Shown: positions 31,651-62,934, numbered from the stretch's first letter. The stretch is 64,000 nucleotides of DNA from a virus (IMGVR_UViG_3300024274_000264); one strand, 5' to 3'. Made by a program: numbers and translations. Notes: generated by a model from the sequence alone, not told the origin.

Positions 31651-32025
31651 ATGTCACAGACAACACTAAAGTTTCCATACTGGAAAGATGCCCCAGAAAA
31701 CTATACGGGAATCATCGATAGGACAAACGGAGTAAACGGATCAATTGAATATTACAGAGATGGATTACTTCACAGAATAGATGGTCCAGCCATCAAATAT
31801 ATGGCTGGAAATGAATATTGGTATGTTGATGGAGATATATACTTTGTTTCTTCATTAAATTGGTTTATTGAACACTCGGTCTTTCTTAAAAAAGAAAAAG
31901 GTAAATATGACTTATATTGGCTTAAGTTCTTAACAGAAAAAGGAATTGAAGAGTTTCCAATAATACCAGGAATGGAAAAAAATAAAGATTTTATAGAAAT
32001 AATAGAAAACTTAAATATGGTATAA
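31651..32025 (+). CDS. HRxDGPA-repeat family protein 1 (1 repeat)
   Basis: PENYTGI, LHRIDGPA, KEKGKYDLYWLKFLTEKGIEEFPIIPGM. Confidence 0.85.
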   Translation: MSQTTLKFPYWKDAPENYTGIIDRTNGVNGSIEYYRDGLLHRIDGPAIKYMAGNEYWYVDGDIYFVSSLNWFIEHSVFLKKEKGKYDLYWLKFLTEKGIEEFPIIPGMEKNKDFIEIIENLNMV

Positions 32026-32029
32026 AAAC

Positions 32030-32512
32030 ATGAACAAAATATATGTCGAGAGGTTTAGTTTTGCTCCGAAAAACTTTACAGGAGTTGTCGAAACCTATAA
32101 TAAAGACTTGTGTTGGCTTAAAGAAGGAAAACTTTATCAAAGAGAAAATGATCAACCAAGTGTCCAATATTGTGACGGAGAAAAAAGATGGTTTATGGAT
32201 GAAAAACTTCATAGAACAACTGGTCCCGCAGTTGAAAAACCAATCTGTAAACTTGGTGGGGCAACTATAATCATAGATCACAAAGAATGGTGGGTTGAAG
32301 GAAAACACTATTTTCCTATTGTTTTTGAATTTTATAGCAACAATTTCTTTTTAGAAAATAGAATCTTTCTTAAAAAAGAAAAAGATAAATATGATCTTGA
32401 GTGGTTATGGTTTTTAACAGAAAATGAAATTAAAAAATATCCTCTTATTCCTGGTATTGAATCTGACAAAAGGACGAAATCTTATTATGACCATTTAAAA
32501 CTACAAATGTAG
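32030..32512 (+). CDS. HRxDGPA-repeat family protein 2
   Basis: PKNFTGV, one degenerate repeat plus LHRTTGPA, constant C-terminal module. Confidence 0.85.
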   Translation: MNKIYVERFSFAPKNFTGVVETYNKDLCWLKEGKLYQRENDQPSVQYCDGEKRWFMDEKLHRTTGPAVEKPICKLGGATIIIDHKEWWVEGKHYFPIVFEFYSNNFFLENRIFLKKEKDKYDLEWLWFLTENEIKKYPLIPGIESDKRTKSYYDHLKLQM

Positions 32513-32537
32513 CACACAAAAAAACAAATAAATAAAA

Positions 32538-32921
32538 ATGAAAACAATAAAACTAAAACTAAAAGAACATGTTCCTGAACACTATACAGGAATTATCGAA
32601 TGGGAAAATGGACCAAAATATTGGTATAAAGAAGGAAAACTTCATAGATTAGATGGTCCTGCTTGTGAATTTTCAGATGGATATAAACAATGGTGGATTG
32701 AAGGAAAAGAAAATAATGTCAAAAAACTTTTTGAACTAATTCAAAAAGCGATTTATCTTGGAGCCGAAAAAGGCAACCATAACCTGTGTTGTTTAAGGTT
32801 CCTAACAGAAAATCAAGGAATCCAAGAGTTTCCCATTGTTCCAGGAATGGAAGAATGCAAAGAATTTAAAACTTTGTTTGAATCCCTTAACCAAAAAACG
32901 ATCGCGGCATCAATAACATGA
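32538..32921 (+). CDS. HRxDGPA-repeat family protein 3 (1 repeat)
   Basis: LHRLDGPA plus constant module. Confidence 0.85.
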   Translation: MKTIKLKLKEHVPEHYTGIIEWENGPKYWYKEGKLHRLDGPACEFSDGYKQWWIEGKENNVKKLFELIQKAIYLGAEKGNHNLCCLRFLTENQGIQEFPIVPGMEECKEFKTLFESLNQKTIAASIT

Positions 32922-33361
32922 ACCAACAACAAACAACATTAAAACTGAAAAACGAAGAACCTATTCCAGAATACTATACAGGAATTGTTGAACGGGAAAA
33001 TGGAACCAAGGAATGGAGAAAAAAAGGAATGATTCACCGAGAAGATGGTCCTGCGGTTGAATATTCAGATGGAACCAAATGTTGGTACAAAAATGGATTG
33101 TGGCATCGACTCGATGGCCCAGCAGTTGAATATCAAAACAAGTATAAAAATCGATGGCATATTGATGGAAATATCATGAGTGCTAAAATTCTAAAACATC
33201 ATATAGATAATATGATTTATTTAGGAACCGAAAAGGGCAAATATAACTTATATTGGTTAAAATTTTTATCAGAAAATGGGGTCGAAGAGTTTCCAATCAT
33301 ACCAGGAATGGAAAAAGATGAAAATTTTAAACCACTCCTCCTAAAAACTTTAGGGACATAA
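32918..33361 (+). CDS. HRxDGPA-repeat family protein 4 (2 repeats)
   Basis: IHREDGPA, WHRLDGPA. Confidence 0.85.
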   Translation: MNQQQTTLKLKNEEPIPEYYTGIVERENGTKEWRKKGMIHREDGPAVEYSDGTKCWYKNGLWHRLDGPAVEYQNKYKNRWHIDGNIMSAKILKHHIDNMIYLGTEKGKYNLYWLKFLSENGVEEFPIIPGMEKDENFKPLLLKTLGT

Positions 33362-33364
33362 AGC

Positions 33365-33868
33365 ATGAAAATTTTGAAACCAAAAAATAGTGAAAAATAT
33401 ACAGGAATTGTTGAATGGGAAAATGGAACCAAATATTGGTATAAAGATGGATTACTCCACAGAGAAGATGGACCAGCTGTTGAATGGGCAGACGGAGCAA
33501 AATTCTGGTATAAAGAAGGAAAACTTCACAGAATAGATGGTCCAGCTATTGAATACGCAAATGGATCAAAACTCTGGTATGAAAAAGGAAAACTTCATAG
33601 AATAGATGGTTCAGCAGTCGAATGGAATGATGGGATAAAAGAATGGTGGATTGAAGGAAAATTCTATAACCAGTCGGATCTAGAAAAATTTATCAACTAT
33701 TTCCTTTTTCTTGGAAAAGAAAACGGCAAATATAACTTATGTTGGTTAAAGTTCCTAACAGAACAAAGAATTGAAGAATTTCCAATTATTCCTGGAATGC
33801 ACAACGCCTTATGGTTTAGGGAACTATTTCAAAATCTTGATGAAATCAAAACGACACCAATAACATGA
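33365..33868 (+). CDS. HRxDGPA-repeat family protein 5 (3 repeats)
   Basis: LHREDGPA, LHRIDGPA, LHRIDGSA. Confidence 0.85.
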   Translation: MKILKPKNSEKYTGIVEWENGTKYWYKDGLLHREDGPAVEWADGAKFWYKEGKLHRIDGPAIEYANGSKLWYEKGKLHRIDGSAVEWNDGIKEWWIEGKFYNQSDLEKFINYFLFLGKENGKYNLCWLKFLTEQRIEEFPIIPGMHNALWFRELFQNLDEIKTTPIT

Positions 33869-34332
33869 ATACGATAAAACTGAAAAATGAAGAACCTATT
33901 CCAGAATACTATACAGGAATTATTGAATGGGAAAATGGAACCAAATATTGGTATAAAGAAGGAAAACAACATCGAATAGATGGTCCTGCTTGTGAATGGG
34001 ATAATGGAGATAAGTTTTGGTATAAAGAAGGCTTACTTCATAGAATCGATGGCCCAGCAATTGAATATCAACATGGAGCCAAATTTTGGTATATAGACGA
34101 TAACCACTATCATGGCTCCAAAACTATTGAAATCTTGTTATCCAATTCTATCTTTCTTTCTGCCGAGCCAAACGGAAAATATAACATTCCCTGGCTTTTG
34201 TTTCTAACAGAACAAGGAATTACTGAACACCCTATCCTCCCAGGTTATCCATATTCTTTAAGGTATATCAATAAGTTTGTTTCCTCTCTCCCTGATTCCA
34301 TTCAGTCCATTATAAGGTCTTCAGCTCAATAA
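33865..34332 (+). CDS. HRxDGPA-repeat family protein 6 (2 repeats)
   Basis: QHRIDGPA, LHRIDGPA; divergent C-terminal module. Confidence 0.85.
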   Translation: MNTIKLKNEEPIPEYYTGIIEWENGTKYWYKEGKQHRIDGPACEWDNGDKFWYKEGLLHRIDGPAIEYQHGAKFWYIDDNHYHGSKTIEILLSNSIFLSAEPNGKYNIPWLLFLTEQGITEHPILPGYPYSLRYINKFVSSLPDSIQSIIRSSAQ

Positions 34333-34354
34333 AAACATTCGGGGCAGCAACAGC

Positions 34355-34804
34355 ATGAATATGCTAAAAATAACTTCCAGAAGACAAATTCCAAAAAACT
34401 TTACAGGTATTGTGGAATACGAAGACGGAAACAAAGTATTTCTTAAAGAAGGAAAATATCATCGAACTGATGGTCCTGCTATTGAATGGTTAAACGGCAC
34501 AAAACTTTGGTATATAGAAGATAAACGGCACCGAATAGACGGCCCAGCGATTGAGTGGAGTGATGGATCAAAAGAATGGTGGATCGATGATAATATTTTT
34601 AACTGTACGTTGCTAGACGAGCTCATTCAAACATCTGTTTATCTTGGAAAAGAAAAAAGTAAGTTCAATCTTGAATGGCTAAGATTCTTAACAGAAGATG
34701 AAATTTATGAATTCCCAATTATTCCTGGTATGTGGCAATATGAAGAGCTTAAAATCTCGTTTGAAAGTCTTGATAAAGAAACAAAAACGGCACCAATACC
34801 ATGA
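34355..34804 (+). CDS. HRxDGPA-repeat family protein 7 (2 repeats)
   Basis: YHRTDGPA, RHRIDGPA. Confidence 0.85.
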   Translation: MNMLKITSRRQIPKNFTGIVEYEDGNKVFLKEGKYHRTDGPAIEWLNGTKLWYIEDKRHRIDGPAIEWSDGSKEWWIDDNIFNCTLLDELIQTSVYLGKEKSKFNLEWLRFLTEDEIYEFPIIPGMWQYEELKISFESLDKETKTAPIP

Positions 34805-35232
34805 ATACCTTAAAACTAAAAGAAAATCAAGAGCCCCCATCAAATTATACAGGAATTGTAGAACATGTAGATGGAACCAAGTTTTGGTATAAAGAAGGAT
34901 TGCTTCATAGAGAAAATGGCCCAGCTGCTGAATATAATGACAATAAAACTAATTGTTGGTATGTAGAAGGGTTAATTCATAGATTAGATGGTCCAGCAAT
35001 TGAATATGCAAATGGAGTTAACGAATGGTACATTCAAGATGAATGTTATGCTCCTGAAATGCTTTCTCACTTGATTAAAACATCTATTTTTCTCGGGAAA
35101 GAAAAAGGAAAATATAACCTTTATTGGTTAAAGTTTTTATCAGAAACCCAAGGAATTAAGGAGTTTCCGATCATTCCAGGGATGGATAAAGATGAAAGTT
35201 TCAAACAACTATTCGAAACTTTAGGAATATAA
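34801..35232 (+). CDS. HRxDGPA-repeat family protein 8 (2 repeats)
   Basis: LHRENGPA, IHRLDGPA. Confidence 0.85.
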   Translation: MNTLKLKENQEPPSNYTGIVEHVDGTKFWYKEGLLHRENGPAAEYNDNKTNCWYVEGLIHRLDGPAIEYANGVNEWYIQDECYAPEMLSHLIKTSIFLGKEKGKYNLYWLKFLSETQGIKEFPIIPGMDKDESFKQLFETLGI

Positions 35233-35234
35233 AA

Positions 35235-35681
35235 ATGAAAACAATAAAACTGAAAAAACATGAAATTGCCCCAAGCAATTTTACAGGAATTATTGAATCG
35301 GAAAATGGAAATAAGTATTGGTACAAAAATGACAAACTTCACAGAATAGATGGACCAGCTGTGGAATATCTAGGCGGAACAAAAGAATGGTGGATTGAAG
35401 ATAAACTTCATAGAGTAGATGGACCAGCAATTGAATATTCCAGTGGACATAAAGAATGGTGGATTAATAAAAGTGTTTATAATGTTTATTACCTAGAATA
35501 TCTTTTTGAAACCGCAATATATCTTAGGAAAGAAAAAGGAAAATATGATTTATATTGGTTTAAATTCTTAACAGAAACAGGAATTGAAGAATTCGCGGTT
35601 ATTCCAGGAATGGAAATCGATCAAGAATATAATGAATTATTTTTTAAAATTGATCAATTGGCGGGGGCAACCTCAATATGA
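35235..35681 (+). CDS. HRxDGPA-repeat family protein 9 (2 repeats)
   Basis: LHRIDGPA, LHRVDGPA. Confidence 0.85.
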   Translation: MKTIKLKKHEIAPSNFTGIIESENGNKYWYKNDKLHRIDGPAVEYLGGTKEWWIEDKLHRVDGPAIEYSSGHKEWWINKSVYNVYYLEYLFETAIYLRKEKGKYDLYWFKFLTETGIEEFAVIPGMEIDQEYNELFFKIDQLAGATSI

Positions 35682-36079
35682 GTCAAATAAAACAGCGAAA
35701 CATTTTCCAACTAAAAGTTGGAGAAAAAATACCAGAAAACTTTACTGGTATTGCGATTAACGAAAATCAATCTAAATTTTATTACAGAGATGGATTACTC
35801 CACCGAGAAGATGGACCTGCAAGAGAATGGGCAACTGGTCATAAAGAATGGTGGATTGATGGAGAAGAATATACCTGGTTGTGTGTTTTTACGATGATAA
35901 AGGACGGGATTTATATTAAAACTGAAAAAGACGACTATAACCTATATTGGCTAACATTTTTGACAGAAGAAGGATTCGAAAAGTTTCCTATTATACCTGG
36001 AATGGAAACAGATCCGTGGTTTAAAGCCTCGGTCGAGATGCTTAAACAAGCCAAAATAATCGAGGCAACATCACCATGA
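35678..36079 (+). CDS. HRxDGPA-repeat family protein 10 (1 repeat)
   Basis: LHREDGPA. Confidence 0.85.
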   Translation: MSQIKQRNIFQLKVGEKIPENFTGIAINENQSKFYYRDGLLHREDGPAREWATGHKEWWIDGEEYTWLCVFTMIKDGIYIKTEKDDYNLYWLTFLTEEGFEKFPIIPGMETDPWFKASVEMLKQAKIIEATSP

Positions 36080-36471
36080 ATCAACAACAAACCATAATAA
36101 AAGTAATCTCATTTACGGAAGTTCCAGATAAGTATACAGGAATTGCTATCCGTAGCAATGGATCTAAATGTTGGTTCAAAGAAGGAAAAAGACATAGAAT
36201 AGATGGTCCAGCAAACGAATACTTTGATGGATCAAAAATATGGTGGATCGAAGGAATTCTTTATGGCCATAGACTATTAAAAAATCTTATTGAATTCTCA
36301 ATCTTTCTTGGAACCGAAAAAGGAAAATATGATCTTGATTGGTTAAGGTTCTTAACAGAAGAAGAAGGAATCCAAGAGTTTCCTATAGTTCCTGGAATGG
36401 AGGAATTAAAAACATTTCAGGAGTTGTTTAAAAGTCTTCGTAATCAAATAGTCGGGGCAACAATACCATGA
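36076..36471 (+). CDS. HRxDGPA-repeat family protein 11 (1 repeat)
   Basis: RHRIDGPA. Confidence 0.85.
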   Translation: MNQQQTIIKVISFTEVPDKYTGIAIRSNGSKCWFKEGKRHRIDGPANEYFDGSKIWWIEGILYGHRLLKNLIEFSIFLGTEKGKYDLDWLRFLTEEEGIQEFPIVPGMEELKTFQELFKSLRNQIVGATIP

Positions 36472-36965
36472 ATACCATAAAACTTAAAGATGAAGAAAAT
36501 ATTCCCAATAAGTTTACTGGAATTGTTGAATGGGAACACGGAACAAAACAATGGTATAAAGAAGGATCGTTTCATAGATTGAATGCTCCAGCAGTTGAAT
36601 TCGCAGATGGAACAAAATATTGGTACAAGGAAGGAAAACCTCATCGAGAGGATGGTCCAGCTATTGAATACCCAAATGGAGAAAAACATTGGTATAAAGA
36701 GGGAAAACGACATAGAGTTGATGGTCCTGCTATTGAATTACCAAACGGAGAAAAAGAATGGTGGATCGAAGGAATGTATTATGCTCCTGCAATACTTTCT
36801 TACTTAATTCAATTTGCTGTTTATCTCGGAACAGAAAAAGGCAACCATAACCTACCTTGGTTAAGGTTCTTAACAGAAGAAGGAATAGAAGAATTTCCTC
36901 TTATTCCAGGTATGAACCAAGACAAAAACTTTAAGAAGTTGTTAATCCATTCCTATAACTCTTGA
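36468..36965 (+). CDS. HRxDGPA-repeat family protein 12 (3 repeats)
   Basis: FHRLNAPA, PHREDGPA, RHRVDGPA. Confidence 0.85.
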   Translation: MNTIKLKDEENIPNKFTGIVEWEHGTKQWYKEGSFHRLNAPAVEFADGTKYWYKEGKPHREDGPAIEYPNGEKHWYKEGKRHRVDGPAIELPNGEKEWWIEGMYYAPAILSYLIQFAVYLGTEKGNHNLPWLRFLTEEGIEEFPLIPGMNQDKNFKKLLIHSYNS

Positions 36966-36991
36966 CTCTCTTCTTGGTTAAGATATATCAT
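36962..36991 (+). promoter_or_regulatory. Possible sigma70-type promoter
   Basis: TTGACT-N18-TATCAT. Confidence 0.45.
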
Positions 36992-37011
36992 GGTTGAAAC
37001 TTCTTTCTATT

Positions 37012-37203
37012 TGGTTTCTATTTGGTTAAACCTTCATTAATTTGATTAATTTTCTATTAAATTCTTGTTAAATTCTTCACATGGTTTCTATTTGGTTAAA
37101 CCTTCATTAATTTGATTAATTTTCTATTAAAACTCATATGGTTAAACCTTCATTAATTTGATTAATTTTCTATTAAATTCTTGTTAAATTCTTCACATGG
37201 TTT
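37012..37203. repeat. AT-rich direct repeats: 39-bp core x3 within a ~70-bp unit
   Basis: TGGTTAAACCTTCATTAATTTGATTAATTTTCTATTAAA at 37023, 37093 and 37139; TTCTTGTTAAATTCTTCACATGGTTT follows copies 1 and 3. Confidence 0.92.
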
Positions 37204-37495
37204 GATACATTTCACTCTTTCAACTTTTTCTTCAAAATTTTACTTTCTCAAACATTTCATTTAATTTCTTTTAGTTTCAATTTTTGGTCTTGGGAACCAA
37301 CACACACGGGCAACAGTTGGGCGTCAACTACCGCAACGAATAGTTCAAGAGTTTCGATAAGTTAGAGCAAGGTCAATGTGAAATTAATTCAGCAAGTGGA
37401 GGGTAGCGGGGTTGTGGAGTGGGGGAAGGTGGAAGGAGGAATAAAGTGGAATTAAAGTAGGAAAGAGAGAGGGAGGGGTTGACGGTGCGGATAGA

Positions 37496-38026
37496 GTGGC
37501 TAAGGTGAGTATTGGTGGAGTGGGTTTATTTGTTAAGAAAGGACAAATAAAAAAGATGCCAAAACACAGGGTTATAAGGTTAAAACCCAATATAAGTGGT
37601 GTGAGGATGGGTTTCACGGGAATGATTATTTCGGAGAAAATGGGTGGTGGTGTTGCGGGAAAATATTGGTATAAGAAAGGATTACTTCATCGAGAAGGCG
37701 GCCCAGCATTTGAAACTTTTGATATAACCTATAGAGAAAAGAGATGGTATAAAGAAGGAAAGTTGCATAATCCTTATGGATATGCTATTGAAGTGAACTC
37801 GGGATATACAGCATTTTATCTTGAGAGCAAGGAGGTTTCTGCAATTAGCTTAAGAATGCTTTTTGACACTTCTTTATACTTTGGGTATGAGATAGGAAAG
37901 TATGGTATTAAGTGGATGAAGTTTTTAACGGATAAGAATGGGATTGAAGAGTTTCCTTATATTAAAGGAATGGAAGAGAAAGAAATTTGCAAAGGGATAT
38001 TGGAAGAATTAGGGGTTATGGATTGA
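37496..38026 (+). CDS. HRxDGPA-repeat family protein 13 (divergent)
   Basis: GFTGMI, LHREGGPA, LHNPYGYA, GKYGIKWMKFLTDKNGIEEFP; start uncertain. Confidence 0.8.
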   Translation: MAKVSIGGVGLFVKKGQIKKMPKHRVIRLKPNISGVRMGFTGMIISEKMGGGVAGKYWYKKGLLHREGGPAFETFDITYREKRWYKEGKLHNPYGYAIEVNSGYTAFYLESKEVSAISLRMLFDTSLYFGYEIGKYGIKWMKFLTDKNGIEEFPYIKGMEEKEICKGILEELGVMD

Positions 38027-38042: not shown

Positions 38043-38471
38043 ATGTCTATGGAGGTTTTAAAGTTAAAAGCTGGGGTTGCTGTTTCGGGGAATTATACAG
38101 GAATAATTGAGTATGAAATTGGGACTAAAATTTGGTATAAAGAGGGTAAACTCCATCGAGAAGATGGACCAGCTATTGAGGTTTGGGATGGAACAAAAGA
38201 ATGGTGGGCCGATGGAAAATGTCATAGGATAGATGGCCCAGCAATTGAACGAACAAATGGAACAAAAGAGTGGTGGGTTGAGGATATTCGATGTTTTGAT
38301 TTAATCGATTTTGATTTTTATACAAAGTATGCAGCTTATATGGGATTAGAGAAAGGCAAATATGGTATTGAATGGGTTAAGTTTTTAACAGAAGAAGGAA
38401 TAGAAGAGTTTCCTATTGTTTTAGGGATGAAAGATTATGAAGAGATTAAGAGATTGATTTCTTTGTTATGA
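38043..38471 (+). CDS. HRxDGPA-repeat family protein 14 (2 repeats)
   Basis: LHREDGPA, CHRIDGPA. Confidence 0.85.
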   Translation: MSMEVLKLKAGVAVSGNYTGIIEYEIGTKIWYKEGKLHREDGPAIEVWDGTKEWWADGKCHRIDGPAIERTNGTKEWWVEDIRCFDLIDFDFYTKYAAYMGLEKGKYGIEWVKFLTEEGIEEFPIVLGMKDYEEIKRLISLL

Positions 38472-38501: not shown

Positions 38502-38650
38502 AACTTGAATTCTTTTCCAAAAAAGATGGGAAATATTGAAAAAAATTTTGACTTTCCATCTAGGAGAAAGTATAAAATATCTAGGGAAATTCCATAAAAC
38601 GATGTTTTTGAATTCATGTGTTTCGGAATTGCAGGGTTTTTGATATAAAA
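38502..38650 (+). repeat. 149-bp intergenic promoter cassette, copy 1
   Basis: Near-identical to 41471-41619; contains TTGACT(38548)-N17-TATAAA(38571). Confidence 0.9.
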
Positions 38651-38673: not shown

Positions 38674-39105
38674 ATGGAAATAATAAAGCTGGAAAACATG
38701 GGCCAAGTTCCTAGTGATTATACAGGAATTGTTATATTTAACTCGGGATATAAATATTGGTTTAAAGATGGAAAAAGACATAGAATTAACAACCCAGCTG
38801 TGGAATATGAAGATAGAGAAAAAGAATGGTGGGCTAAAGAATGGTGGGTTGATGGATTATTACACCGAATAGATGGACCTGCCGTTGAATGGAAAACTGG
38901 GTTTGTTATTTGGGGTGTTGATGGAAAAGAATACGATAAAGAGATGCTGGATGGAAATCTCTTTCTTAAGAAAGAGATAGGCAAGTATGGTTTAGAATGG
39001 ATTTATGTTTTAGGCGTGGGTGGGATAATTGAGTTTCCTATTATTCCTGGAATGGAAACTGATAAAGAGCTTTGGGATTGGATTAAGAAGATTTGTTCTA
39101 CATGA
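38674..39105 (+). CDS. HRxDGPA-repeat family protein 15 (2 repeats)
   Basis: RHRINNPA, LHRIDGPA. Confidence 0.85.
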   Translation: MEIIKLENMGQVPSDYTGIVIFNSGYKYWFKDGKRHRINNPAVEYEDREKEWWAKEWWVDGLLHRIDGPAVEWKTGFVIWGVDGKEYDKEMLDGNLFLKKEIGKYGLEWIYVLGVGGIIEFPIIPGMETDKELWDWIKKICST

Positions 39106-39112
39106 AAGAGAA

Positions 39113-39595
39113 ATGAAAACAGTCATGGAAGTTTTGAAACTGAAACTTAGTGGATATATTCCCGACAACTATACAGGAATAATTGAATGGGAAAATGGAA
39201 GTAAAAACTGGTATAAAGAAGATAAACTTCACCGAGAAGACGGTCCAGCTATCGAAAGAATAAATGGAGACAAATATTGGTATATTAAAGGAAAACTTCA
39301 TAGAACGGATGGACCTGCTATTGTTGGGATAAATGGATATAAAGAATGGTTTGTTAATGGCGACTTAGTTGGTTATAGTGTACTAAATTTTCTTGTATTC
39401 AATTCTTTGTATATTGGGAAAGAGAAAGGCAGATATGATCTATATTGGTTAAAGTTTTTAACAGAAGGAGGAATTAAAGAATATCCTCTCATTCCAGGAA
39501 TGAGAGAGGATAATAATATTTTAAGATCAATTCAAGAATTGAATTCTTTGGTTGGAGAAGAAGTTTTTTTAGATGTTGCCGCGACTGATTTATGA
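39113..39595 (+). CDS. HRxDGPA-repeat family protein 16 (2 repeats; start revised)
   Basis: ATG at 39113 (or 39125); LHREDGPA, LHRTDGPA. Confidence 0.85.
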   Translation: MKTVMEVLKLKLSGYIPDNYTGIIEWENGSKNWYKEDKLHREDGPAIERINGDKYWYIKGKLHRTDGPAIVGINGYKEWFVNGDLVGYSVLNFLVFNSLYIGKEKGRYDLYWLKFLTEGGIKEYPLIPGMREDNNILRSIQELNSLVGEEVFLDVAATDL

Positions 39596-39712: not shown

Positions 39713-40096
39713 ATGGAAATTATAAACATGAATAATCCAGGTGAAATGATTCCTAAAAACTATACGGGAATTGTGTATTATACCAGTACACGGTCAAAGT
39801 ATTGGTATAAAGAAGGAAGGGCTCACAGAATAGATGGACCAGCTGTAGAATGTCCAGCTGTAGAATATGGAAATGGAGAAAGATATTGGTGGGTTGATGG
39901 AGTTTACTATTTTGGTAATATATTATGTAGCACAATCAATTCATCAATTTTTCTTGGGATCGAAAAAGGAAAGTATGACCTTAGATGGATAAAGTTTCTA
40001 ACAGAAGATGGAGTTGAAGAGTATCCTATTATTCCAGGAATGGAAACCGATCCTCTTTTTAAGAAAGCTTTTCGTAAACTTTCACTTGAGATCTAG
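39713..40096 (+). CDS. HRxDGPA-repeat family protein 17 (1 repeat)
   Basis: AHRIDGPAVECPAVE, with a small internal duplication. Confidence 0.85.
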   Translation: MEIINMNNPGEMIPKNYTGIVYYTSTRSKYWYKEGRAHRIDGPAVECPAVEYGNGERYWWVDGVYYFGNILCSTINSSIFLGIEKGKYDLRWIKFLTEDGVEEYPIIPGMETDPLFKKAFRKLSLEI

Positions 40097-40187
40097 AGAA
40101 AACCTCATTTCTCTTAAACTTGAATTCTTGAACACAAAACATGCGAGAAAATGAACATGAGTTTTATCCAAAATCCCAGGGGTATAA

Positions 40188-40259
40188 ATCAAAAACCCTG
40201 GAAAACCGAAGAATTCAAAAACTTGAATTCGTGTGTTTGAGAATTACAGGGTTTTTGAT
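40188..40259. repeat. Nested inverted repeat in an intergenic leader
   Basis: ATCAAAAACCCTG (40188-40200) / CAGGGTTTTTGAT (40247-40259); inner GAATTCAA-aaac-TTGAATTC. Confidence 0.8.
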
Positions 40260-40285
40260 ATAAAATAAGGAAAGAAAGAAAGGTA

Positions 40286-40753
40286 ATGAAAACGAAAACA
40301 GAAACGCTTAAATTAAAAGTTGATGAGTTGTGCCCTGAAAACTTTACAGGGATTGTTGAATATCCACTAGGAACAAAAATATGGTTTCAGGATGGGTTTC
40401 CCCATAGAGTAGATGGGCCAGCCATTGAACAGGCTAATGGAGATAAAGAATGGTGGATTGATGGAAAATGTCATAGATTAGATGGTCCCGCTTGTGAATA
40501 CGCAAACGGAACAAAAGAATGGCATCTCGAAGGATCTTTCTATCACTCCATGATTTTAAAAATGCTTTTTAAAGATTCGATCTTTCTTGGAAAAGAAAAA
40601 GGAAAATATGATTTATATTGGCTAAAGTTTTTGACAGTAAATCAAGGAATTCAAGAGTTTCCTTATATTAAAGGAATGGAAACAGAGAGACTGTTCTTTT
40701 CTTTGCTTAAAGAATTTTTAACAGAAAAAGAGATGAAGGAAATTGGGTTATGA
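40286..40753 (+). CDS. HRxDGPA-repeat family protein 18 (2 repeats)
   Basis: PHRVDGPA, CHRLDGPA. Confidence 0.85.
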   Translation: MKTKTETLKLKVDELCPENFTGIVEYPLGTKIWFQDGFPHRVDGPAIEQANGDKEWWIDGKCHRLDGPACEYANGTKEWHLEGSFYHSMILKMLFKDSIFLGKEKGKYDLYWLKFLTVNQGIQEFPYIKGMETERLFFSLLKEFLTEKEMKEIGL

Positions 40754-41103
40754 GCATAATAGGGTTAACAGTTGGACAAAACTTTACAGGAATGATTCCA
40801 ACCAATTATGGAGACAAAGAATGGTTTAAAAATGGAAAAAGGCATCGAGAAGATGGACCTGCGATTGAATGGAGAGTTGGTTCAAAAGAATGGTTTATTG
40901 ATGGAGTTAGATATGAAATATATGATTTGGAAGAAATGTTTATTTCTGCCCTTTTTCTTGAAACCAAAAAGGGCAAATATAACCTATATTGGTTAAAGTT
41001 TTTGACAAAAGACCAAGGAATAAAAGAGTTTCCTGTTATTCCTGGGATGGAGGATGTGAGTCCTTTACTGAAAACAAGAATGGATGAGATCATTTCACCA
41101 TGA
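40750..41103 (+). CDS. HRxDGPA-repeat family protein 19 (1 repeat)
   Basis: RHREDGPA. Confidence 0.85.
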   Translation: MSIIGLTVGQNFTGMIPTNYGDKEWFKNGKRHREDGPAIEWRVGSKEWFIDGVRYEIYDLEEMFISALFLETKKGKYNLYWLKFLTKDQGIKEFPVIPGMEDVSPLLKTRMDEIISP

Positions 41104-41477
41104 ACATAATAGAAGTGAATTCGTTTACAGAAGTTCCTGAAAACTTTACAGGAATTATTGAACATAAAGCAATGAAAGCTAAATTTTGGTACAAAGAAAG
41201 AAAATGGCATCGAGAAGATGGTCCAGCTGTTGAAATAGATAACGGAAATAAAGAATGGTGGATTAGCAGTATGCCATACAATGTTACAACTTTAGAAAGA
41301 TATTATAAAAAATATATATTTCTTGGAAAAGAAAAAGGCATCCATAACCTTGATTGGCTAAAGTTTTTAACAGAAAATGAAGGGATTATAGAGTTTCCTT
41401 ATATTAAAGGAATGGAAGAATCTAGAGATGCTTCTCAAGAATTAAAACTGTTTTTAATAGATTTATTCAAAACTTGA
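41100..41477 (+). CDS. HRxDGPA-repeat family protein 20 (1 repeat)
   Basis: WHREDGPA. Confidence 0.85.
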   Translation: MNIIEVNSFTEVPENFTGIIEHKAMKAKFWYKERKWHREDGPAVEIDNGNKEWWISSMPYNVTTLERYYKKYIFLGKEKGIHNLDWLKFLTENEGIIEFPYIKGMEESRDASQELKLFLIDLFKT

Positions 41478-41619
41478 ATTCTTCTCCAAAAAAGATGGGA
41501 AATGTTGAAAAAATTTTTGACTTTCCATCTAGGAGAAAGTATAAAATATCTAGGGAAATTCCGCAAATTGCCTTTTTTGAATTCATGTGTTTGGAAATTG
41601 CAGGGTTTTTGATATAAAA
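41471..41619 (+). repeat. 149-bp intergenic promoter cassette, copy 2
   Basis: Near-identical to 38502-38650; TTGACT(41517)-N17-TATAAA(41540). Confidence 0.9.
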
Positions 41620-41643: not shown

Positions 41644-42000
41644 ATGGAAACGATTAAATTAAAAGGTAATGAATGTATCCCTAGGAACTATACAGGGATT
41701 GCAGAATATGAATCAGGAATTAAGTATTGGTATAAAGATGGAAATTTTCACCGAATAGATGGCCCTGCTTGTGAATATCGAAATAGAGACAAGTATTGGT
41801 ATATAGATGATTTCATGTATCATCCATTTACATTAAATCAATTAATAGAAAATACTCTTTTTTTAAAGATAGAAAAAGGCATCCATAACCTTGATTGGTT
41901 AAAGTTCTTAACAGAAAGAGGAATCCAAGAGTTTCCTATTATTCCTGGAATGAGAGAGGACGAAGAATTTAAAGTTATTTTCGAAAAACTTGGAGCTTAA
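41644..42000 (+). CDS. HRxDGPA-repeat family protein 21 (1 repeat)
   Basis: FHRIDGPA. Confidence 0.85.
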   Translation: METIKLKGNECIPRNYTGIAEYESGIKYWYKDGNFHRIDGPACEYRNRDKYWYIDDFMYHPFTLNQLIENTLFLKIEKGIHNLDWLKFLTERGIQEFPIIPGMREDEEFKVIFEKLGA

Positions 42001-42010: not shown

Positions 42011-42439
42011 ATGGAAGTTTTGAAACTAAATTCATCTGCCGAGATTCCTAAAAACTATACTGGTGTTATTGAATTTTATAATGGAACTAAAGCTTGGTAT
42101 AAAGAGGGTAAAATTCATCGAGAAGATGGACCAGCTGTTGAACATTCAGATGGAGATAAAGAATGGTGGATTGAAGACAAACGGCACCGAATAGATGGTC
42201 CAGCGATTGAAATGCCTGGTGGTACCAAACTTTGGTATATAGACAGTGTATATCTAAGTTATAAAGATTTGGAACACTGGTTAAATACTGGTATTTTTCT
42301 TGGCAAAGAAAAAGGCAAATATGATCTTGATTGGATAAGGTTCTTAACAGAAAGAGGAATCCAAGAGTTTCCTATTATTTCTGGAATGGAACAATATAAA
42401 AACTTTGAAATACTGTTTACTTTTTTAAAACAAGTTTAA
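42011..42439 (+). CDS. HRxDGPA-repeat family protein 22 (2 repeats)
   Basis: IHREDGPA, RHRIDGPA. Confidence 0.85.
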   Translation: MEVLKLNSSAEIPKNYTGVIEFYNGTKAWYKEGKIHREDGPAVEHSDGDKEWWIEDKRHRIDGPAIEMPGGTKLWYIDSVYLSYKDLEHWLNTGIFLGKEKGKYDLDWIRFLTERGIQEFPIISGMEQYKNFEILFTFLKQV

Positions 42440-57561: not shown

Positions 57562-57603
57562 ATAATACCTCTTTTAAATTCAAAAATAATTAGATTGCAA
57601 ATT

Positions 57604-58185
57604 TTAGTTCCTTGGAAAGAAACCAACAATTAAACCTGTCACGATTGCCCCCAAAACTATCCCACCAATAGTAAACCCAACAATTCTTCCAACTTCTCCC
57701 TCTGTTTGTCTTCTAAGAGAATTCGAATAAGTTTCATATTGAAAGATAGTTCTGTTTCTGTTTTCAATTAAAAGTGAATATGTACGCTGCTGTGTCGAAA
57801 TTGTGTTTCTTAAGGATTCAATATCTCTTATTGCAGTCGCTGCAAGTTGTTGTCTTTCATAAAGAGAATTAACTTGACATGTTCTTTGCTGAGCTCTTAT
57901 TTCAACTTCAAGACCCGCGGCGGCAACGTTATTAAACAGAACGCCGCTATACGGCGCGGTGCCACCTTCTCTCACCGCAATAATTCTGCTTCCTTCTGGT
58001 AAAGAGAACAAAGTTGAGGCATCGGATATCGGAACAACCGAGGCATCCAAAACAGAATTAAATTCTGATTCATGTGTTGCTGGAATCGTAGCCACTGGAT
58101 ATTCAAGAGAGCTTGTTTGAGGCCGCTGAATAGAGGAGCATCCAATCGCGGCAATAAGAAACAAAGACATTGTTTTTTTTATCAT
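57604..58185 (-). CDS. Lipoprotein with C-terminal TM helix (unimolecular-spanin topology)
   Basis: MIKKTMSLFLIAAIG-C lipobox-like signal; C-terminal IVGFTIGGIVLGAIVTGLIVGFF. Confidence 0.5.
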   Translation of the reverse strand: MIKKTMSLFLIAAIGCSSIQRPQTSSLEYPVATIPATHESEFNSVLDASVVPISDASTLFSLPEGSRIIAVREGGTAPYSGVLFNNVAAAGLEVEIRAQQRTCQVNSLYERQQLAATAIRDIESLRNTISTQQRTYSLLIENRNRTIFQYETYSNSLRRQTEGEVGRIVGFTIGGIVLGAIVTGLIVGFFPRN

Positions 58186-58186
58186 T

Positions 58187-58531
58187 TTATATTATACCTT
58201 TCTTTATATCAGATTCTTTCAGTTTTTTAAAATTAGGGATTTCACAAATTCCTCCATTTTCTGTTAAAAGCTTAATCCACTCAAGACCGTGCTTGCCTTT
58301 TTCAATTCCAAGAAATATCGATTCTTTAATTAAAGAATCTAAGATTTCCTCTGTGTACACAAATTCATCTATATAACAAGATGTTATGTTTTCGCCCCAT
58401 TCAATTGCTGGTCCGTCCGTTCTATGAAGTTTACCTTCAACCCACCATTCTTTTGTTCCGCTAAAAACTTCAACAATTCCCGTATAATTGTCGGGAAATA
58501 CATCTCCAAAGTTTAGTTTTAAAGTTTTCAT
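58187..58531 (-). CDS. HRxDGPA-repeat family protein 23 (1 repeat)
   Basis: LHRTDGPA plus constant module. Confidence 0.85.
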   Translation of the reverse strand: MKTLKLNFGDVFPDNYTGIVEVFSGTKEWWVEGKLHRTDGPAIEWGENITSCYIDEFVYTEEILDSLIKESIFLGIEKGKHGLEWIKLLTENGGICEIPNFKKLKESDIKKGII

Positions 58532-58965
58532 TTGTTGCTTTCTATAAACGTTTTATATTCTTCAACCGTAAAAGAATGAACTATTTTTAATTCCCGACCT
58601 GGAATAATAGGAAATTCTTCGATTTTATTTTCTGTCATGAACTTTAACCATTCAAGTCCATATTTCCCGATCTCAGTTCCTAAAAAAATCTTTCCTTCGG
58701 TGGAAAAGTTATTGTTTGTATAGCGAATTCCGTCGAGTCACCATTCTTTATATCCATCTGGATGTTCAACTGCTGGACCATCTATTCTGTGGCGTTTTCC
58801 TTCAATATACCAATATTTGTTTCCATTTGCCCACTCAGCTGCTGGCCCGTTTTCTCGATGTTTTTTTCCATTTTTAAGCCATACTATGGCTCCATTTTCA
58901 GCTTCAACAATTCCTGTAAAGTTGTCAGGAATATATTCGTTAAGTTTTAGTTTTAAAGTTTCCAT
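58528..58965 (-). pseudogene. HRxDGPA-repeat family protein 24 with an in-frame TGA at 58738-58740
   Basis: KEW*LDGIRY...FLGTEIGKYGLEWLKFMTENKIEEFPIIPG continues in frame to a TGA that overlaps the next ATG. Confidence 0.85.
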
Positions 58966-58971
58966 TCACAA

Positions 58972-59442
58972 TCACTCATTCTTTTTTTGCCTTTTTGAAG
59001 CTGGTATGTTTACTAGTTCTAGTAAGTCAGCCGCAACAAAATCCATATAATCCCCACCCCAATTAACGTAAACATACCTGGTACCTGGCTTGTGTACTTT
59101 AACATATCCAACATCTCCTGTTGTTATTTTTTTAACTCTATCTCCAACTTCAAACTGTTTATAACTTTTCGGTTCTTGAACCTTGGTCTCTTCTTTTGGT
59201 TTATTTATAATCGAAACCAATTTAGATTCTAAAACTGGAATCTCTTGTGGGATAAATTCTGGTTTTGGTGCCGCGGCTGCTTGGGGATTCTTCGGTGGTC
59301 TCCCTCGCTTTTTTGGAATTATTCCTGAGTCGACCGCCGAGGCAATAACCGCGGGACTAGGTTTCACATCGCCCGCGGTTTTCTTGTTTTTACTTCCAGG
59401 TGGTCTACCACGTTTTCTTACTACTACATTTAGGTTTGTCAT
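58972..59442 (-). CDS. AT-hook DNA-binding protein with a C-terminal SH3-like barrel
   Basis: RKRGRPPG and KKRGRPPK; FEVGDRV...GYVK...VYVNW. Confidence 0.65.
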   Translation of the reverse strand: MTNLNVVVRKRGRPPGSKNKKTAGDVKPSPAVIASAVDSGIIPKKRGRPPKNPQAAAAPKPEFIPQEIPVLESKLVSIINKPKEETKVQEPKSYKQFEVGDRVKKITTGDVGYVKVHKPGTRYVYVNWGGDYMDFVAADLLELVNIPASKRQKKNE

Positions 59443-59446
59443 GATG

Positions 59447-59983
59447 TTATAGTTTATACTCCTCTAGTTTTAAAACCAGATCAAATTTCCAAAGATTAAG
59501 AAGTTCTTGTTTCATTCCGCCCATTATGGGAAATTCTCGAATTCCATTATGTTCTGTTAGAAACAAAAAGCAGGTAATTCCATATTTTCTTTTTTCTCCT
59601 CCAAGAAAAATTCCTTTATCAAACAAATGAATTAAGTCATTTATATGCCAATATCTTTTTTCATAAAACCAATAAAAACTTCCGTATCTTGATTGGGCTG
59701 GTCTGTCTATTGGATGTTTTCCATTAATATACCATTCTTTTAAATTGAAGTAGGATTGTTCAACAGCTGGACCATCTATTCTATGAAGTTTTCCGTTTTT
59801 ATACCAACATTTCACATATCTATCGTATCCAAATGGGTCGATTTCATTTCGAGTATAAGCAGGGCCATCTTTACGATGAATACTTCCATTTTTATAATAA
59901 ATCTTAACATTACACGGATACTCCACAATCCCTGTAAAGTTTTTAGGAAGTTGAGTCCCTGATAAAATCTTTATTGTTTCCAT
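59447..59983 (-). CDS. HRxDGPA-repeat family protein 25 (start revised)
   Basis: IHRKDGPA, LHRIDGPA and a degenerate third repeat. Confidence 0.85.
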   Translation of the reverse strand: METIKILSGTQLPKNFTGIVEYPCNVKIYYKNGSIHRKDGPAYTRNEIDPFGYDRYVKCWYKNGKLHRIDGPAVEQSYFNLKEWYINGKHPIDRPAQSRYGSFYWFYEKRYWHINDLIHLFDKGIFLGGEKRKYGITCFLFLTEHNGIREFPIMGGMKQELLNLWKFDLVLKLEEYKL

Positions 59984-59985
59984 GT

Positions 59986-60600
59986 TTATACCCATCCACA
60001 CTCATCAAAATAATCTTTTAATTCAGAGTCCATAGACAACATGAATTCACGTATTCCAGGAATCATTGGAAATTCTTTTATTCCTTGGTCTTCTGTTAAG
60101 AACCTTAACCAAAACAAATCATATTTTCCTCTTTCCATATTGAGAAACATATTCTTTTTTAAAAGAATAGGTATGTCCGTTTTTTCAAAACAGAGTTTAT
60201 TATTTAAATACCAATATTTATCTCCGTTTTCAAATTCAATAGCTGGCCCATCTGTTCTGTGCCATTTTCCATTAATGCACCATTCTCTATATCCATCTAC
60301 TCCAACAACCGCAGGAGCAGCTATTCTATGTTTTTTATTATTAACCCACCATTCTTTTGAACCATCCCAAATTTCAACCGCTGGACCACCAATTCTATGT
60401 TTTTTTCCTTTTTTATACCAAATATAAGTAAAATTTTTTAGATTATTGTACATATATTTTGATATATAAGCGGGGCCATCTTTACGATGAATACTTCCAT
60501 TTTTATAATAAATCTCAAGAAAGTTTTCACGTTTAACAATTCCTGTAAAGTTTTTAGGAAATTGTGTGGTTTTTGTCCATAGATCAATTGTTTCCATCAA
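59986..60600 (-). CDS. HRxDGPA-repeat family protein 26 (4 repeats)
   Basis: IHRKDGPA, KHRIGGPA, KHRIAAPA, WHRTDGPA. Confidence 0.85.
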   Translation of the reverse strand: MMETIDLWTKTTQFPKNFTGIVKRENFLEIYYKNGSIHRKDGPAYISKYMYNNLKNFTYIWYKKGKKHRIGGPAVEIWDGSKEWWVNNKKHRIAAPAVVGVDGYREWCINGKWHRTDGPAIEFENGDKYWYLNNKLCFEKTDIPILLKKNMFLNMERGKYDLFWLRFLTEDQGIKEFPMIPGIREFMLSMDSELKDYFDECGWV

Positions 60601-61031
60601 ACACCTACTTTTAAGAGTTCGTCGAGAGATATGTCTTTAAAAATTCTAAATTGATAAGGAGGCATACCAGGAACAAGAGGATATTCTTCAATTCCTGTTT
60701 CTGTTAGAAACTTTAACCACTCAATCTTATACTTTCCGTTTTCTTTTCCAAGAAAAATTTTATTTGAAATATCGATTTCTTTTTTTATTGATTTATTATC
60801 AATCCACCATTCTTTATATCCACCTGAAAGTTCAATAGCTGGTCCGTCTACTCTATGAGTTTTTCCTTCTTTAAGCCATTGTTTATCTCCATTTACCCAT
60901 TCAATTGCAGGTCCATCAAGTCGATGATGTTTTCCTTTTTTAAACCATTCTTTCAATCCACTTGCCCATTCAACAATTCCTGTAAAATGTTTGGGAATTT
61001 TTTCATTATCTTTTAGTTTAAGATGTTTCAT
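60597..61031 (-). CDS. HRxDGPA-repeat family protein 27 (2 repeats)
   Basis: HHRLDGPA, THRVDGPA. Confidence 0.85.
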   Translation of the reverse strand: MKHLKLKDNEKIPKHFTGIVEWASGLKEWFKKGKHHRLDGPAIEWVNGDKQWLKEGKTHRVDGPAIELSGGYKEWWIDNKSIKKEIDISNKIFLGKENGKYKIEWLKFLTETGIEEYPLVPGMPPYQFRIFKDISLDELLKVGV

Positions 61032-61438
61032 TTTAAAACATTCTCCTGCGTAGTTAAAAATGATTGGAGGTCATATCTTTGAACAAATTCATAATTCATA
61101 CCAGGAATAAGAGGATATTCTTCAATTCCTGTTTCTGTTAAAAACTTTAACCACTCAATCCCAAACTTTCCTTTTTCTTTTCCAAGAAAAATTTTGTTTC
61201 TTACATAAATTGTGTCCGAGTATTCTTTTCCACCAACCCACCATTCTTTTGTTCCGTCTGGATTTTCAAAAGCTGGTCCATCTATTCTGTGGCGTTTTCC
61301 TCCAATATACCATTCTTTCGCCCCTCCTGCCCATTCAATCGCGGGTCCATCCTCTCGATGACATTTTCCTTCTTTATACCATTGTTTTGTTCCATCCGAA
61401 GATTCTATAATCTTTATTGTGTCTTCTTTTGTTTTCAT
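61028..61438 (-). CDS. HRxDGPA-repeat family protein 28 (2 repeats, lacks the FTG motif)
   Basis: CHREDGPA, RHRIDGPA. Confidence 0.85.
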   Translation of the reverse strand: MKTKEDTIKIIESSDGTKQWYKEGKCHREDGPAIEWAGGAKEWYIGGKRHRIDGPAFENPDGTKEWWVGGKEYSDTIYVRNKIFLGKEKGKFGIEWLKFLTETGIEEYPLIPGMNYEFVQRYDLQSFLTTQENVLK

Positions 61439-62103
61439 TTTATCACTGGCAGAGATTTTCTTTTTGCACCATGAGCTTCGAATCCAATAACAGCATTTAG
61501 AGTTTTAAGTTTTTTATCGTTCCAACAAAGTTTACACTTTTCACAAGTTATATTTTCATGAGTTTGATTTGGACAAGGAATTAATTTAAATCCATTAAAC
61601 TCATATGCTTTTTTTGATAAAAATTTATCAACAATGATAGCAGGAGCATAACCTTTTCTTCTTGCCGATTTTATTTCTTTTATGTTGTCAACCGAGGCAA
61701 GAACAGAAACCTTATTGCCCCAACTAGAACGAGAAACATCTTTCCAGGCGTGTGTATAAGTCCATACTGGATAGCCCCATTCTTTTGTTGCCTCGGCTAA
61801 TATGGCTGCTGCTTCGTTTGTGCGGCAATCTCCTGCAACGTGCAACCGCAATGGTTTTGTATTCTTTTCTTCTTTAATAGCTTGTTTAATTTGTTTTGCT
61901 TCTTCTCTTGCAACTTCTCTTGGAGTTGATTTCTTTTTATTTAGTTTTGATGTATGAATTCCAACAAAACCAAGTTGAGCATAACATCCATTATCTTTTA
62001 AAGCGCAACTAGTCGGGCAAGAAGAATCAATTGAACTATAAGTCGCGGCAACACCACCAAGTTTTGAATTATTTGTTTTTAACACCAACATCGCATTTGT
62101 CAT
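61435..62103 (-). CDS. Cys-rich, radical-SAM-like/GP88-like Fe-S protein
   Basis: SCPTSCALKDNGCYA, LRLHVAGD, WTYTH, CPNQ...TCEKCKLC. Confidence 0.55.
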   Translation of the reverse strand: MTNAMLVLKTNNSKLGGVAATYSSIDSSCPTSCALKDNGCYAQLGFVGIHTSKLNKKKSTPREVAREEAKQIKQAIKEEKNTKPLRLHVAGDCRTNEAAAILAEATKEWGYPVWTYTHAWKDVSRSSWGNKVSVLASVDNIKEIKSARRKGYAPAIIVDKFLSKKAYEFNGFKLIPCPNQTHENITCEKCKLCWNDKKLKTLNAVIGFEAHGAKRKSLPVIK

Positions 62104-62130
62104 TTTTGTTTTTTTGTTTATATCCTTTTG

Positions 62131-62295
62131 TTATTTTATTTTTTGTTTAGACCACACCAAAAAATAAGATTTTTCAATAAGTTGAATTTTACCTTTTGTT
62201 TCTTTTTTTAAAACTTCTTTATATCCTTCAAACACATTCTTTGTTTGTATTTGAGAATCTGGTTTATCATCAACTATAACGAAGAAAGTTTTCAT
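62131..62295 (-). CDS. Small hypothetical protein (54 aa, below the ORF-track cutoff)
   Basis: MKTFFVIVDDKPDSQ...SKQKIK*; starts 3 nt after the stop of 62299..62934. Confidence 0.45.
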   Translation of the reverse strand: MKTFFVIVDDKPDSQIQTKNVFEGYKEVLKKETKGKIQLIEKSYFLVWSKQKIK

Positions 62296-62298
62296 TTT

Positions 62299-62934
62299 TT
62301 ATATTTCCAAGTAAACGAAAATTTCTTTAAATATTAAATTTTTTTCCATTCCTGAAATAATAGGGAACTCTTTGATTCCTTGATTTTCTGTTAAAAACTT
62401 TAACCAACACAGGTTATGGTTGCCTTTTTCTTTCCCGAGGAAAATAAGTTTTTCGACATAGATTTCCAATTCAAAAGTGGAATAGAGTTTATTATCAACA
62501 TACCATTCTTTTAATCCATCTTTATATTCGCAAGCAGGACCATCGAATCTGTGAAGTAATCCATCTTTATACCAATATTTTGATCCATTTGCCCATTCAA
62601 TAGCAGGACCATCAAATCTATGAAGTTTCCCTTCAACCCACCATTGTTTTGTTCCATCTGCATATTCAACAGCAGGACCATCTGTTCGATGATATTTTCC
62701 TTCTTTGAACCAACATTTTGTTCCATCTGCATATTCAACAGCGGGGCTATCTATTCTGTGAAGTTTTCCTTCAATCCACCATTCTTTTGATCCGTCAAAG
62801 TATTCGTTTGCTGGTCCATCTATTCTATGTCTTTTTCCTTCTTTGAACCAACATTTTGTTCCAGGTTCCCATTCAACAATTCCTGTATAGTATTCAGGAA
62901 TCAATTCATTGTTTTTCAGTTTTATGGTTTTCAT
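62299..62934 (-). CDS. HRxDGPA-repeat family protein 29 (5 repeats)
   Basis: RHRIDGPA, LHRIDSPA, YHRTDGPA, LHRFDGPA x2. Confidence 0.88.
   Translation of the reverse strand: MKTIKLKNNELIPEYYTGIVEWEPGTKCWFKEGKRHRIDGPANEYFDGSKEWWIEGKLHRIDSPAVEYADGTKCWFKEGKYHRTDGPAVEYADGTKQWWVEGKLHRFDGPAIEWANGSKYWYKDGLLHRFDGPACEYKDGLKEWYVDNKLYSTFELEIYVEKLIFLGKEKGNHNLCWLKFLTENQGIKEFPIISGMEKNLIFKEIFVYLEI

Follow-up and report, generated by a model that had tools for sequence, protein, structure and literature searches.

Why would a tailed phage encode 29 versions of one small protein? Tailed phages rarely devote so much coding space to a single paralogous family, yet 29 related genes, amounting to ~15 kb, occur in a 64,000-nucleotide stretch of viral DNA (IMGVR_UViG_3300024274_000264; hereafter the window), which is part of a 203,914-bp IMG/VR record with a CheckV completeness of 56%. 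Each protein combines tandem HRxDGPA repeat units with a conserved C-terminal module. Because the window also encodes two ~1000-aa tail-sheath paralogs, an ATPase and a VWA/DUF2201 protein, we take its source to be a large myovirus-type jumbo phage. Matching DNA was present in sequencing runs of bioreactor, wastewater, activated sludge and freshwater origin, from seven studies. Our preferred reading, to which we give a probability of about one half, is that the 29 genes encode a panel of intracellular protein-binding factors whose constant domain would act as a cap, as a common docking element, or as both.

Architecture and fold of the family

Lists of open reading frames (ORFs) and a 29-row alignment placed the paralogs in three arrays: A (12 genes, 31651-36965, +), B (10 genes, 37496-42439, +) and C (7 genes, 58187-62934, -). 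A first-pass annotation of the window had reported these arrays and their shared sequence grammar, and both were recovered; the arrays occupy 23% of the window, and the 29-gene pattern was confirmed to lie far beyond chance. For array C the coordinates and gene count held, but one copy is cut by an in-frame TGA and three unrelated ORFs interrupt the array. The description of the genes as ATGA-coupled holds for 6 of the 11 junctions of array A and for 2 of the 9 of array B (-4 overlaps); the remaining junctions are gapped by 2-202 nt. A profile search of the whole 203,914-bp record located all of its full family copies inside the window. The window's own protein is indexed on a 390,884-bp contig, and according to the protein index four more members, absent from the 203,914-bp record, lie on a contig of 390,884 bp.

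The proteins are 114-211 aa long, soluble and mostly mildly acidic (isoelectric point, pI, 4.9-9.4, median 5.6), and share 30-50% pairwise identity with the first copy. The idea that they are DNA mimics was rejected on this pI range. All build on one plan: an N-terminal segment common to the family, MxTIKLK...P.N(Y/F)TGI(V/I)E, is followed by repeat units of 23 residues ending in HRxDGPA, then by a half-unit and a variable helix, the conserved C-terminal module and a variable tail. This modular arrangement of constant N-cap, variable repeats and constant C-terminal module had been proposed from the outset, as had the range of one to five units per gene; we counted 54 canonical units in all. 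Within the unit signature W-[YWF]-x-x-G-x-x-H-R-x-D-G-P-A and its flanks, numbered from the invariant His, ten positions are near-fixed (W-7, H0, R+1, D+3, G+4, P+5, A+6, K-9, G-11 and G-3) and six have high entropy (-14, -13, -10, -8, -1 and +2).

A 143-aa paralog (array A gene 8) was modelled by AlphaFold2 from an alignment of 84 sequences, and the whole protein reached a predicted local distance difference test score (pLDDT) of 96.2 and a predicted template modelling score (pTM) of 0.86. Over residues 1-84 the model consists of short paired strands that recur every 23 residues, and over residues 85-140 of a helix, three strands and a helix. A homodimer prediction for the 143-aa paralog scored 0.22 (mark 0.42), which counts neither for nor against self-association. 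When compared with the AlphaFold DB by Foldseek, the repeat part resembled clusters named MORN repeat protein, MORN variant repeat protein and YwqK-family antitoxin (E 8e-7 to ~1e-3; 8e-7 to 1e-4 for those named MORN repeat protein), along with many uncharacterised phage and giant-virus proteins, including seven from the Agrobacterium jumbo phage Atu_ph07. Of the solved chains, the MORN-type N-domain of SET7/9 matched best (Z 4.8), ahead of radial-spoke MORN proteins.

Sequence profiles gave a different picture. No match to Pfam MORN (PF02493) or MORN_2 (PF07661) was found by hmmscan of eight paralogs at E <= 1, no YwqK or MORN-variant model in NCBIfam matched at E <= 0.1, and searches of PHROGs, NCBIfam and PADLOC with full proteins returned nothing meaningful. 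Of the Pfam families only the domain of unknown function DUF6745 (PF20530) was matched, by one of the eight paralogs at 33 bits, over its 27-bit gathering threshold, the others scoring 12-25 bits or not at all. Several database homologs also pass 27 bits and carry a precomputed DUF6745 label, which automatic annotation assigns to many phage HRxDGPA proteins. Every such match is confined to profile positions 63-87 of 206 (18-25 residues, one repeat unit). Given the fold matches and the lack of a Pfam MORN sequence match, we therefore describe the repeat as MORN-like in fold and, in Pfam terms, as only a fragment of DUF6745. The first-pass annotation had called the repeats MORN-like, which the fold matches bear out, and without assigned function; we likewise found none, but the DUF6745 label, resting on that short segment of the profile, had been overlooked. 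A literature search found no paper mentioning DUF6745.

MORN proteins (PF02493, PF07661; for example the SET7/9 N-domain, 1n6c, and radial-spoke proteins) share with the phage family the tandem 23-residue beta-hairpins stacked into an elongated antiparallel sheet. They have a glycine-rich motif and no C-terminal alpha/beta domain, whereas the phage proteins have the HRxDGPA signature and such a domain. DUF6745 has the HRxDGPA-type unit in common with them, and the remainder of the DUF6745 domain is absent from the phage family. Since MORN stands for membrane occupation and recognition nexus, the MORN-like fold could suggest factors that bind membrane or lipid and remodel or mark the host membrane. 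However, no hydrophobic or amphipathic segment and no signal peptide was found in any of the 29 aligned copies, their net charge is mostly negative, and lipid binding was reportedly not borne out by structural studies of MORN1 proteins. A membrane role would also leave 29 diverged copies unexplained, and we regard it as very improbable.

The C-terminal module comprises ~56 residues in an alpha-beta-beta-beta-alpha order and reaches a pLDDT of 92.4 when modelled alone. It had been described as invariant; highly conserved is the better term, with one strictly invariant column, seven columns at least 90% conserved and a mean column identity of 42%. Pfam holds no family that matches it. Its best match in the PDB was the double-stranded RNA-binding domain (dsRBD) of Dicer by Foldseek (E 0.06, TM score 0.43, root-mean-square deviation 8 A) and L38e and SRP9/14 by VIA-align (Z 4.1), and TM scores in the ESM Atlas were at most 0.59. 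All of these resemblances, those in the ESM Atlas included, are weak and go no further than a common small topology. No significant relative emerged from the Pfam hidden Markov models, from Foldseek or VIA-align on the PDB, from ESM Atlas shape and feature searches or from a PDB sequence profile. The module is not a known domain; a known one would have told against the initial proposal. The accompanying analogy with F-box proteins does not extend to the fold, which is a small alpha/beta domain and not helical like an F-box. When 1.84 billion cluster representatives were searched exhaustively with a profile, 53 matched. With one exception these are short proteins (49-230 aa) that end in the module or carry it close to the C-terminus. 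The exception, a weak hit (P0170, 795 aa), was judged spurious, being a repetitive protein with only a short motif in common.

Some of the entries matched in fold bear the name toxin-antitoxin system YwqK family antitoxin, which suggests another reading, in which each paralog would neutralise one toxin or defence effector, without a shared partner and with the C-terminal domain as no more than a structural cap. YwqK-family antitoxins and MORN-variant immunity proteins resemble the phage proteins in their repeat fold, as small soluble binders and in forming variable clusters. Immunity genes of polymorphic toxin systems form homotypic clusters with turnover, and the arrays described here are likewise homotypic with turnover between strains. 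The phage family differs in being phage-encoded and in carrying an extra constant domain; no toxin gene stands beside any of the copies, and a sequence match to NCBIfam or to Pfam MORN_2/YwqK is absent. Moreover, the 56-residue domain is independent, and its charged and Pro/Gly positions hardly vary, which goes beyond what a repeat cap typically shows. On balance, inhibitors of this immunity type seem rather unlikely.

Distribution, selection and turnover of repeat units

A scan of one genome per species across 185,579 prokaryotic species produced no true match; the single locus that it returned was a false positive on a 54% GC contig without any family ORF. Among 50,697 GenBank phage records only the repeat part found matches, none of them with the C-terminal module, and a DNA search of GenBank phages gave no match. 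The full architecture is absent from the cellular genomes and cultured phages searched. Because the prokaryote scan was empty and GenBank phages match the repeat part only, we conclude that the C-terminal module is specific to a small clade of uncultured jumbo phages. Proteins of Agrobacterium phage Atu_ph07 and Celeribacter phage P12053L have the same repeat type (46-57% identity over residues 19-83) and the same fold, but they lack the C-terminal module, occur in fewer copies and are all annotated as hypothetical.

In related contigs, one of them labelled a Leptospiraceae metagenome-assembled genome (a binning that is weak evidence on the host), the arrays lie beside the same ATPase, VWA and downstream genes. 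The block containing array C (~49865-62934, from a 469-aa ATPase-like gene) appears inverted relative to positions 10001-20432 of a related contig (L001), as judged from ORF order and sizes only. At least six copies are present in a second IMG/VR record of 185 kb, where the contig ends within an array. The paralog tree is star-like (31 of its 40 inner branches lack support), and its sole supported clade unites two array-C genes with six copies of a related phage. Since array positions are common to related phages and the tree contains this cross-phage subfamily, the family is old, positionally stable and differentially expanded.

Over all paralog pairs, the proportion of synonymous differences (pS) was 0.59, and thus saturated, and that of nonsynonymous differences (pN) was 0.37. 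Codons of the framework and core had a pN of ~0-0.1, those of the variable positions 0.6-0.7. The family is selectively maintained, with purifying selection acting on the framework. These values bear on the proposal that the arrays are non-functional DNA, selfishly amplified and drifting neutrally. Consistent with that proposal, one copy contains a nonsense codon, and unit indels and gene-conversion patches mark the locus as prone to recombination. On the other hand, 28 of 29 frames are intact despite saturated synonymous sites, which excludes neutral decay, the framework barely tolerates nonsynonymous change, and array positions and one subfamily are common to several phages. We consider neutral drift barely credible; neutral evolution of the copies, too, would have told against the initial proposal.

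The disrupted copy has TGA in place of a Trp codon (TGG in the paralogs) within a KEWW motif at 58738-58740 (-), which truncates it to 75 aa. The frame beyond stays family-like to 58528, where it overlaps the ATG of the next gene. TGA is a genuine stop in this phage, as it is used by the ATGA overlaps; hence the codon either arose by a recent nonsense mutation, is a sequencing error or is read through in translation.

Direct evidence of unit turnover came from three near-identical contigs of a related phage (L001-L003), which differ almost only in family genes. One gene lacks exactly one unit and another exactly three, both in register, and two neighbouring genes that are separate in one strain form a single 417-aa fusion in another. 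Units are thus gained and lost rapidly between strains, and a further relative (P0007) holds three identical tandem units. Patches of 90-98% identity within adjacent paralogs that are 57-69% identical overall indicate gene conversion. New here are the scale of the family (29 or more copies), its clade-restricted constant domain and this record of unit turnover between strains.

A smaller difference was seen within the window around 39842, where a 15-nt segment of gene 39713-40096, corresponding to a duplicated PAVEC/PAVEY, is missing in contigs from two other runs, so that strains differ by an indel inside a repeat unit.

Possible functions of the arrays

In functional terms the closest precedents, MORN domains, YwqK-type immunity proteins and the repeat families of giant viruses, are all protein-protein binders, and by analogy the phage proteins most likely bind other proteins as well. 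The elongated repeat sheet would recognise different targets by varying about six residues per unit and the number of units. The constant C-terminal domain would confer one second property on all members, either stabilising the end of the sheet, docking on a common partner, or both. The proteins would be made inside the infected cell, where their role is probably host takeover or counter-defence. Giant viruses have expanded families of repeat proteins (ANK, FNIP, MORN and others) that are thought to mediate interactions with host proteins (Shukla et al. 2018, PMC5753266). These families, like the MORN2 expansion of Fusobacterium, resemble the arrays in having many clustered paralogs on one repeat scaffold; here, by contrast, the genome is that of a tailed phage with a bacterial host, and the same clade-specific C-terminal domain is present in every member.

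Several observations weigh against a panel of protein-binding factors. Saturated pS among the paralogs permits no inference of positive selection, and a fixed framework with a variable surface is typical of any repeat protein and so is no proof of target diversification. Between L001 and L003, pN/pS was 0.32 for family genes and 0.07 for their neighbours, a comparison of 28 substitutions that misaligned repeats confound in part. The constant domain might do no more than cap the fold. Literature searches on HRxDGPA, DUF6745 and MORN with jumbo phage or anti-defence yielded nothing, including no partner, target or phenotype for any member, and neither PADLOC (five paralogs) nor known anti-defence families gave a match. 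With regard to expression, contigs from one metatranscriptome cover arrays and structural genes alike and may derive from DNA. The first-pass annotation had placed the genes behind early-type sigma-70 promoters, which lacks statistical support: a generic sigma-70 scan found 37 sites against 48 +/- 8 in shuffled sequences, so that such sites are rarer than in the shuffles.

A more elaborate proposal holds that the arrays form a combinatorial adaptor library. Repeat sheets would capture different host proteins, for example defence sensors or effectors, and the constant domain would deliver them to one hub, which might be some machine of the phage or the host: a protease, for instance, the ATPase/VWA pair close by, or the virion. 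In-register gain and loss of units, with gene conversion, would be an inherent source of new specificities. This resembles the adaptor or decoy scheme first put forward, with repeats on defence sensors and the module on one shared partner, which by analogy is plausible but unsupported. Poxviral ANK/PRANC (F-box-like) adaptors follow a similar logic, with variable repeats, a constant C-terminal module and many paralogs, but the likeness ends there: the phage family has another repeat and another C-terminal fold, and bacteria are without a ubiquitin system. We think an adaptor library unlikely. If true, it would be the equivalent, in a bacterial virus, of poxviral ANK-PRANC proteins and of the repeat families of giant viruses. 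The ATPase (44424-45707, -) and the VWA/DUF2201 metallopeptidase-like protein (45750-47324, +) are encoded as a divergent pair between arrays B and C, adjoining B, and are a candidate for the shared partner.

The genomic setting raises the further idea that the proteins are packaged in the virion and injected, with the module or the N-cap serving as an incorporation signal for capsid or tail and the repeats acting on the host directly after injection. Arrays A and B are neighbours of a structural block whose large genes include the two tail-sheath paralogs. In addition, phiKZ-like jumbo phages package paralogous internal proteins, and a constant terminal tag on variable bodies follows the logic of a capsid-targeting sequence. 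Against this, the N-terminal strand is modelled with high confidence inside the fold (pLDDT 91-95) and hence is not a free propeptide, the arrays are encoded on the other strand than the structural genes, with promoter-like cassettes of their own, and a cargo of 29 or more paralogs would be out of the ordinary. Packaging therefore appears quite improbable to us, and we continue to favour a panel of binders made within the cell.

Phages, giant viruses and mobile elements commonly carry MORN-like repeats of the HRxDGPA type, and our literature search gave no paper on them. The clade described here is a favourable entry point: its scaffold is modelled confidently, the variable positions are defined, and strains differ naturally in the number of units; the constant domain could also serve as bait for a shared partner. 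Should the proteins prove to be target-specific binders, they would show which host processes a wastewater jumbo phage has to control, and a small natural scaffold for binders might be derived from them. Should they turn out to be just structural or redundant, the arrays would remain a clear example of a phage gene family evolving through its repeats.

Coordinates, neighbouring genes and promoter-like sites

Table 1. Family genes, interrupting ORFs and promoter-like sites, in window coordinates
Feature	Position	Strand	Remarks
Array A gene 1	31651..32025	+	124 aa, 1 canonical unit and C-terminal module
Array A gene 2	32030..32512	+	160 aa, degenerate units and C-terminal module; most diverged copy
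Array A gene 3	32538..32921	+	127 aa, 1 unit
Array A gene 4	32918..33361	+	147 aa, 2 units; ATGA overlap with gene 3
Array A gene 5	33365..33868	+	167 aa, 3 units
Array A gene 6	33865..34332	+	155 aa, 2 units; ATGA overlap
Array A gene 7	34355..34804	+	149 aa, 2 units
Array A gene 8	34801..35232	+	143 aa, 2 units; copy used for AlphaFold2 model
Array A gene 9	35235..35681	+	148 aa, 2 units
Array A gene 10	35678..36079	+	133 aa, 1 unit; ATGA overlap
Array A gene 11	36076..36471	+	131 aa, 1 unit; ATGA overlap
Array A gene 12	36468..36965	+	165 aa, 3 units; ATGA overlap
Array B gene 1	37496..38026	+	176 aa from GTG (internal ATG may be true start), 2 units, pI 9.4
Array B gene 2	38043..38471	+	142 aa, 2 units
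Array B gene 3	38674..39105	+	143 aa, 2 units; C-terminal module diverged
Array B gene 4	39110..39595	+	~161 aa from ATG 39110 (listed ORF: TTG at 39029), 2 units
Array B gene 5	39713..40096	+	127 aa, 1 unit with 5-residue internal duplication
Array B gene 6	40286..40753	+	155 aa, 2 units
Array B gene 7	40750..41103	+	117 aa, 1 unit; ATGA overlap
Array B gene 8	41100..41477	+	125 aa, 1 unit; ATGA overlap
Array B gene 9	41644..42000	+	118 aa, 1 unit
Array B gene 10	42011..42439	+	142 aa, 2 units
Array C gene	58187..58531	-	114 aa, 1 unit; end of C-terminal module diverged
Array C copy with in-frame TGA	58528..58965	-	75 aa as called (58738-58965); rest of frame still family-like
Array C gene	59447..60001	-	184 aa from GTG (ATG at 59983 likelier), 2 canonical and irregular units, basic
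Array C gene	59986..60600	-	204 aa, 4 units; ~54-nt patch 96-98% identical to neighbouring copy
Array C gene	60597..61031	-	144 aa, 2 units; short-linker subtype
Array C gene	61028..61438	-	136 aa, 2 units, without usual N-cap; ~100-nt patch 90-96% identical to 60597..61031 copy
Array C gene	62299..62934	-	211 aa, 5 units; longest copy
Unrelated ORF in array C	58972-59442	-	AT-hook protein, rich in Pro, Lys, Ala
Unrelated ORF in array C	61435-62103	-	DUF7227/GP88-like
Unrelated ORF in array C	62131-62295		From ORF list
Best sigma-70-like site 5' of array A	31354..31382	+	10/12, TG-extended; consensus match only
Sigma-70-like site, start of 530-nt gap before array B	36962..36991	+	10/12; consensus match only
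Cassette copy 1	38502..38650	+	TTGACT-N17-TATAAA, TG-extended -10-like element; upstream of 38674
Cassette, degenerate copy	40117..40265	+	64% identity to copy 1; upstream of 40286
Cassette copy 3	41471..41619	+	92% identity to copy 1; upstream of 41644

ORFs inserted in or flanking the arrays (Table 1) encode an AT-hook protein, a DUF7227 protein, a deoxynucleoside monophosphate (dNMP) phosphatase, the ATPase and the VWA protein. The two tail-sheath paralogs are adjacent (10819-13827 and 13930-16974, -), and the sheath family is matched only in their C-terminal third. Two ORFs (112-714 and 762-1292) carry a short YLTE..I.EFP-like motif resembling the core of the C-terminal module; their status as repeat-less relatives is unproven, as profile comparison by hhalign gave a probability of 13-22%. 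Outside the window but in the same 203,914-bp record, a 787-aa protein (L006 1002-3365) contains isolated single HRxDGPA units and an N-cap-like PDGFTGI motif in otherwise unrelated sequence, and has no Pfam or PADLOC match.

Individual good sigma-70-like sites do precede arrays A and B or sit in intergenic gaps. A ~149-nt cassette occurs three times in the gaps of array B, combining TTGACT-N17-TATAAA with a TG-extended -10-like element. Its two best copies are conserved much better than the genes downstream of them. The gap between arrays A and B (36966-37495) is 530 nt of non-coding DNA. Within it lie three ~68-nt direct repeats (37020-37203), two being 99% identical, and a strongly G-rich stretch right before the GTG start at 37496.

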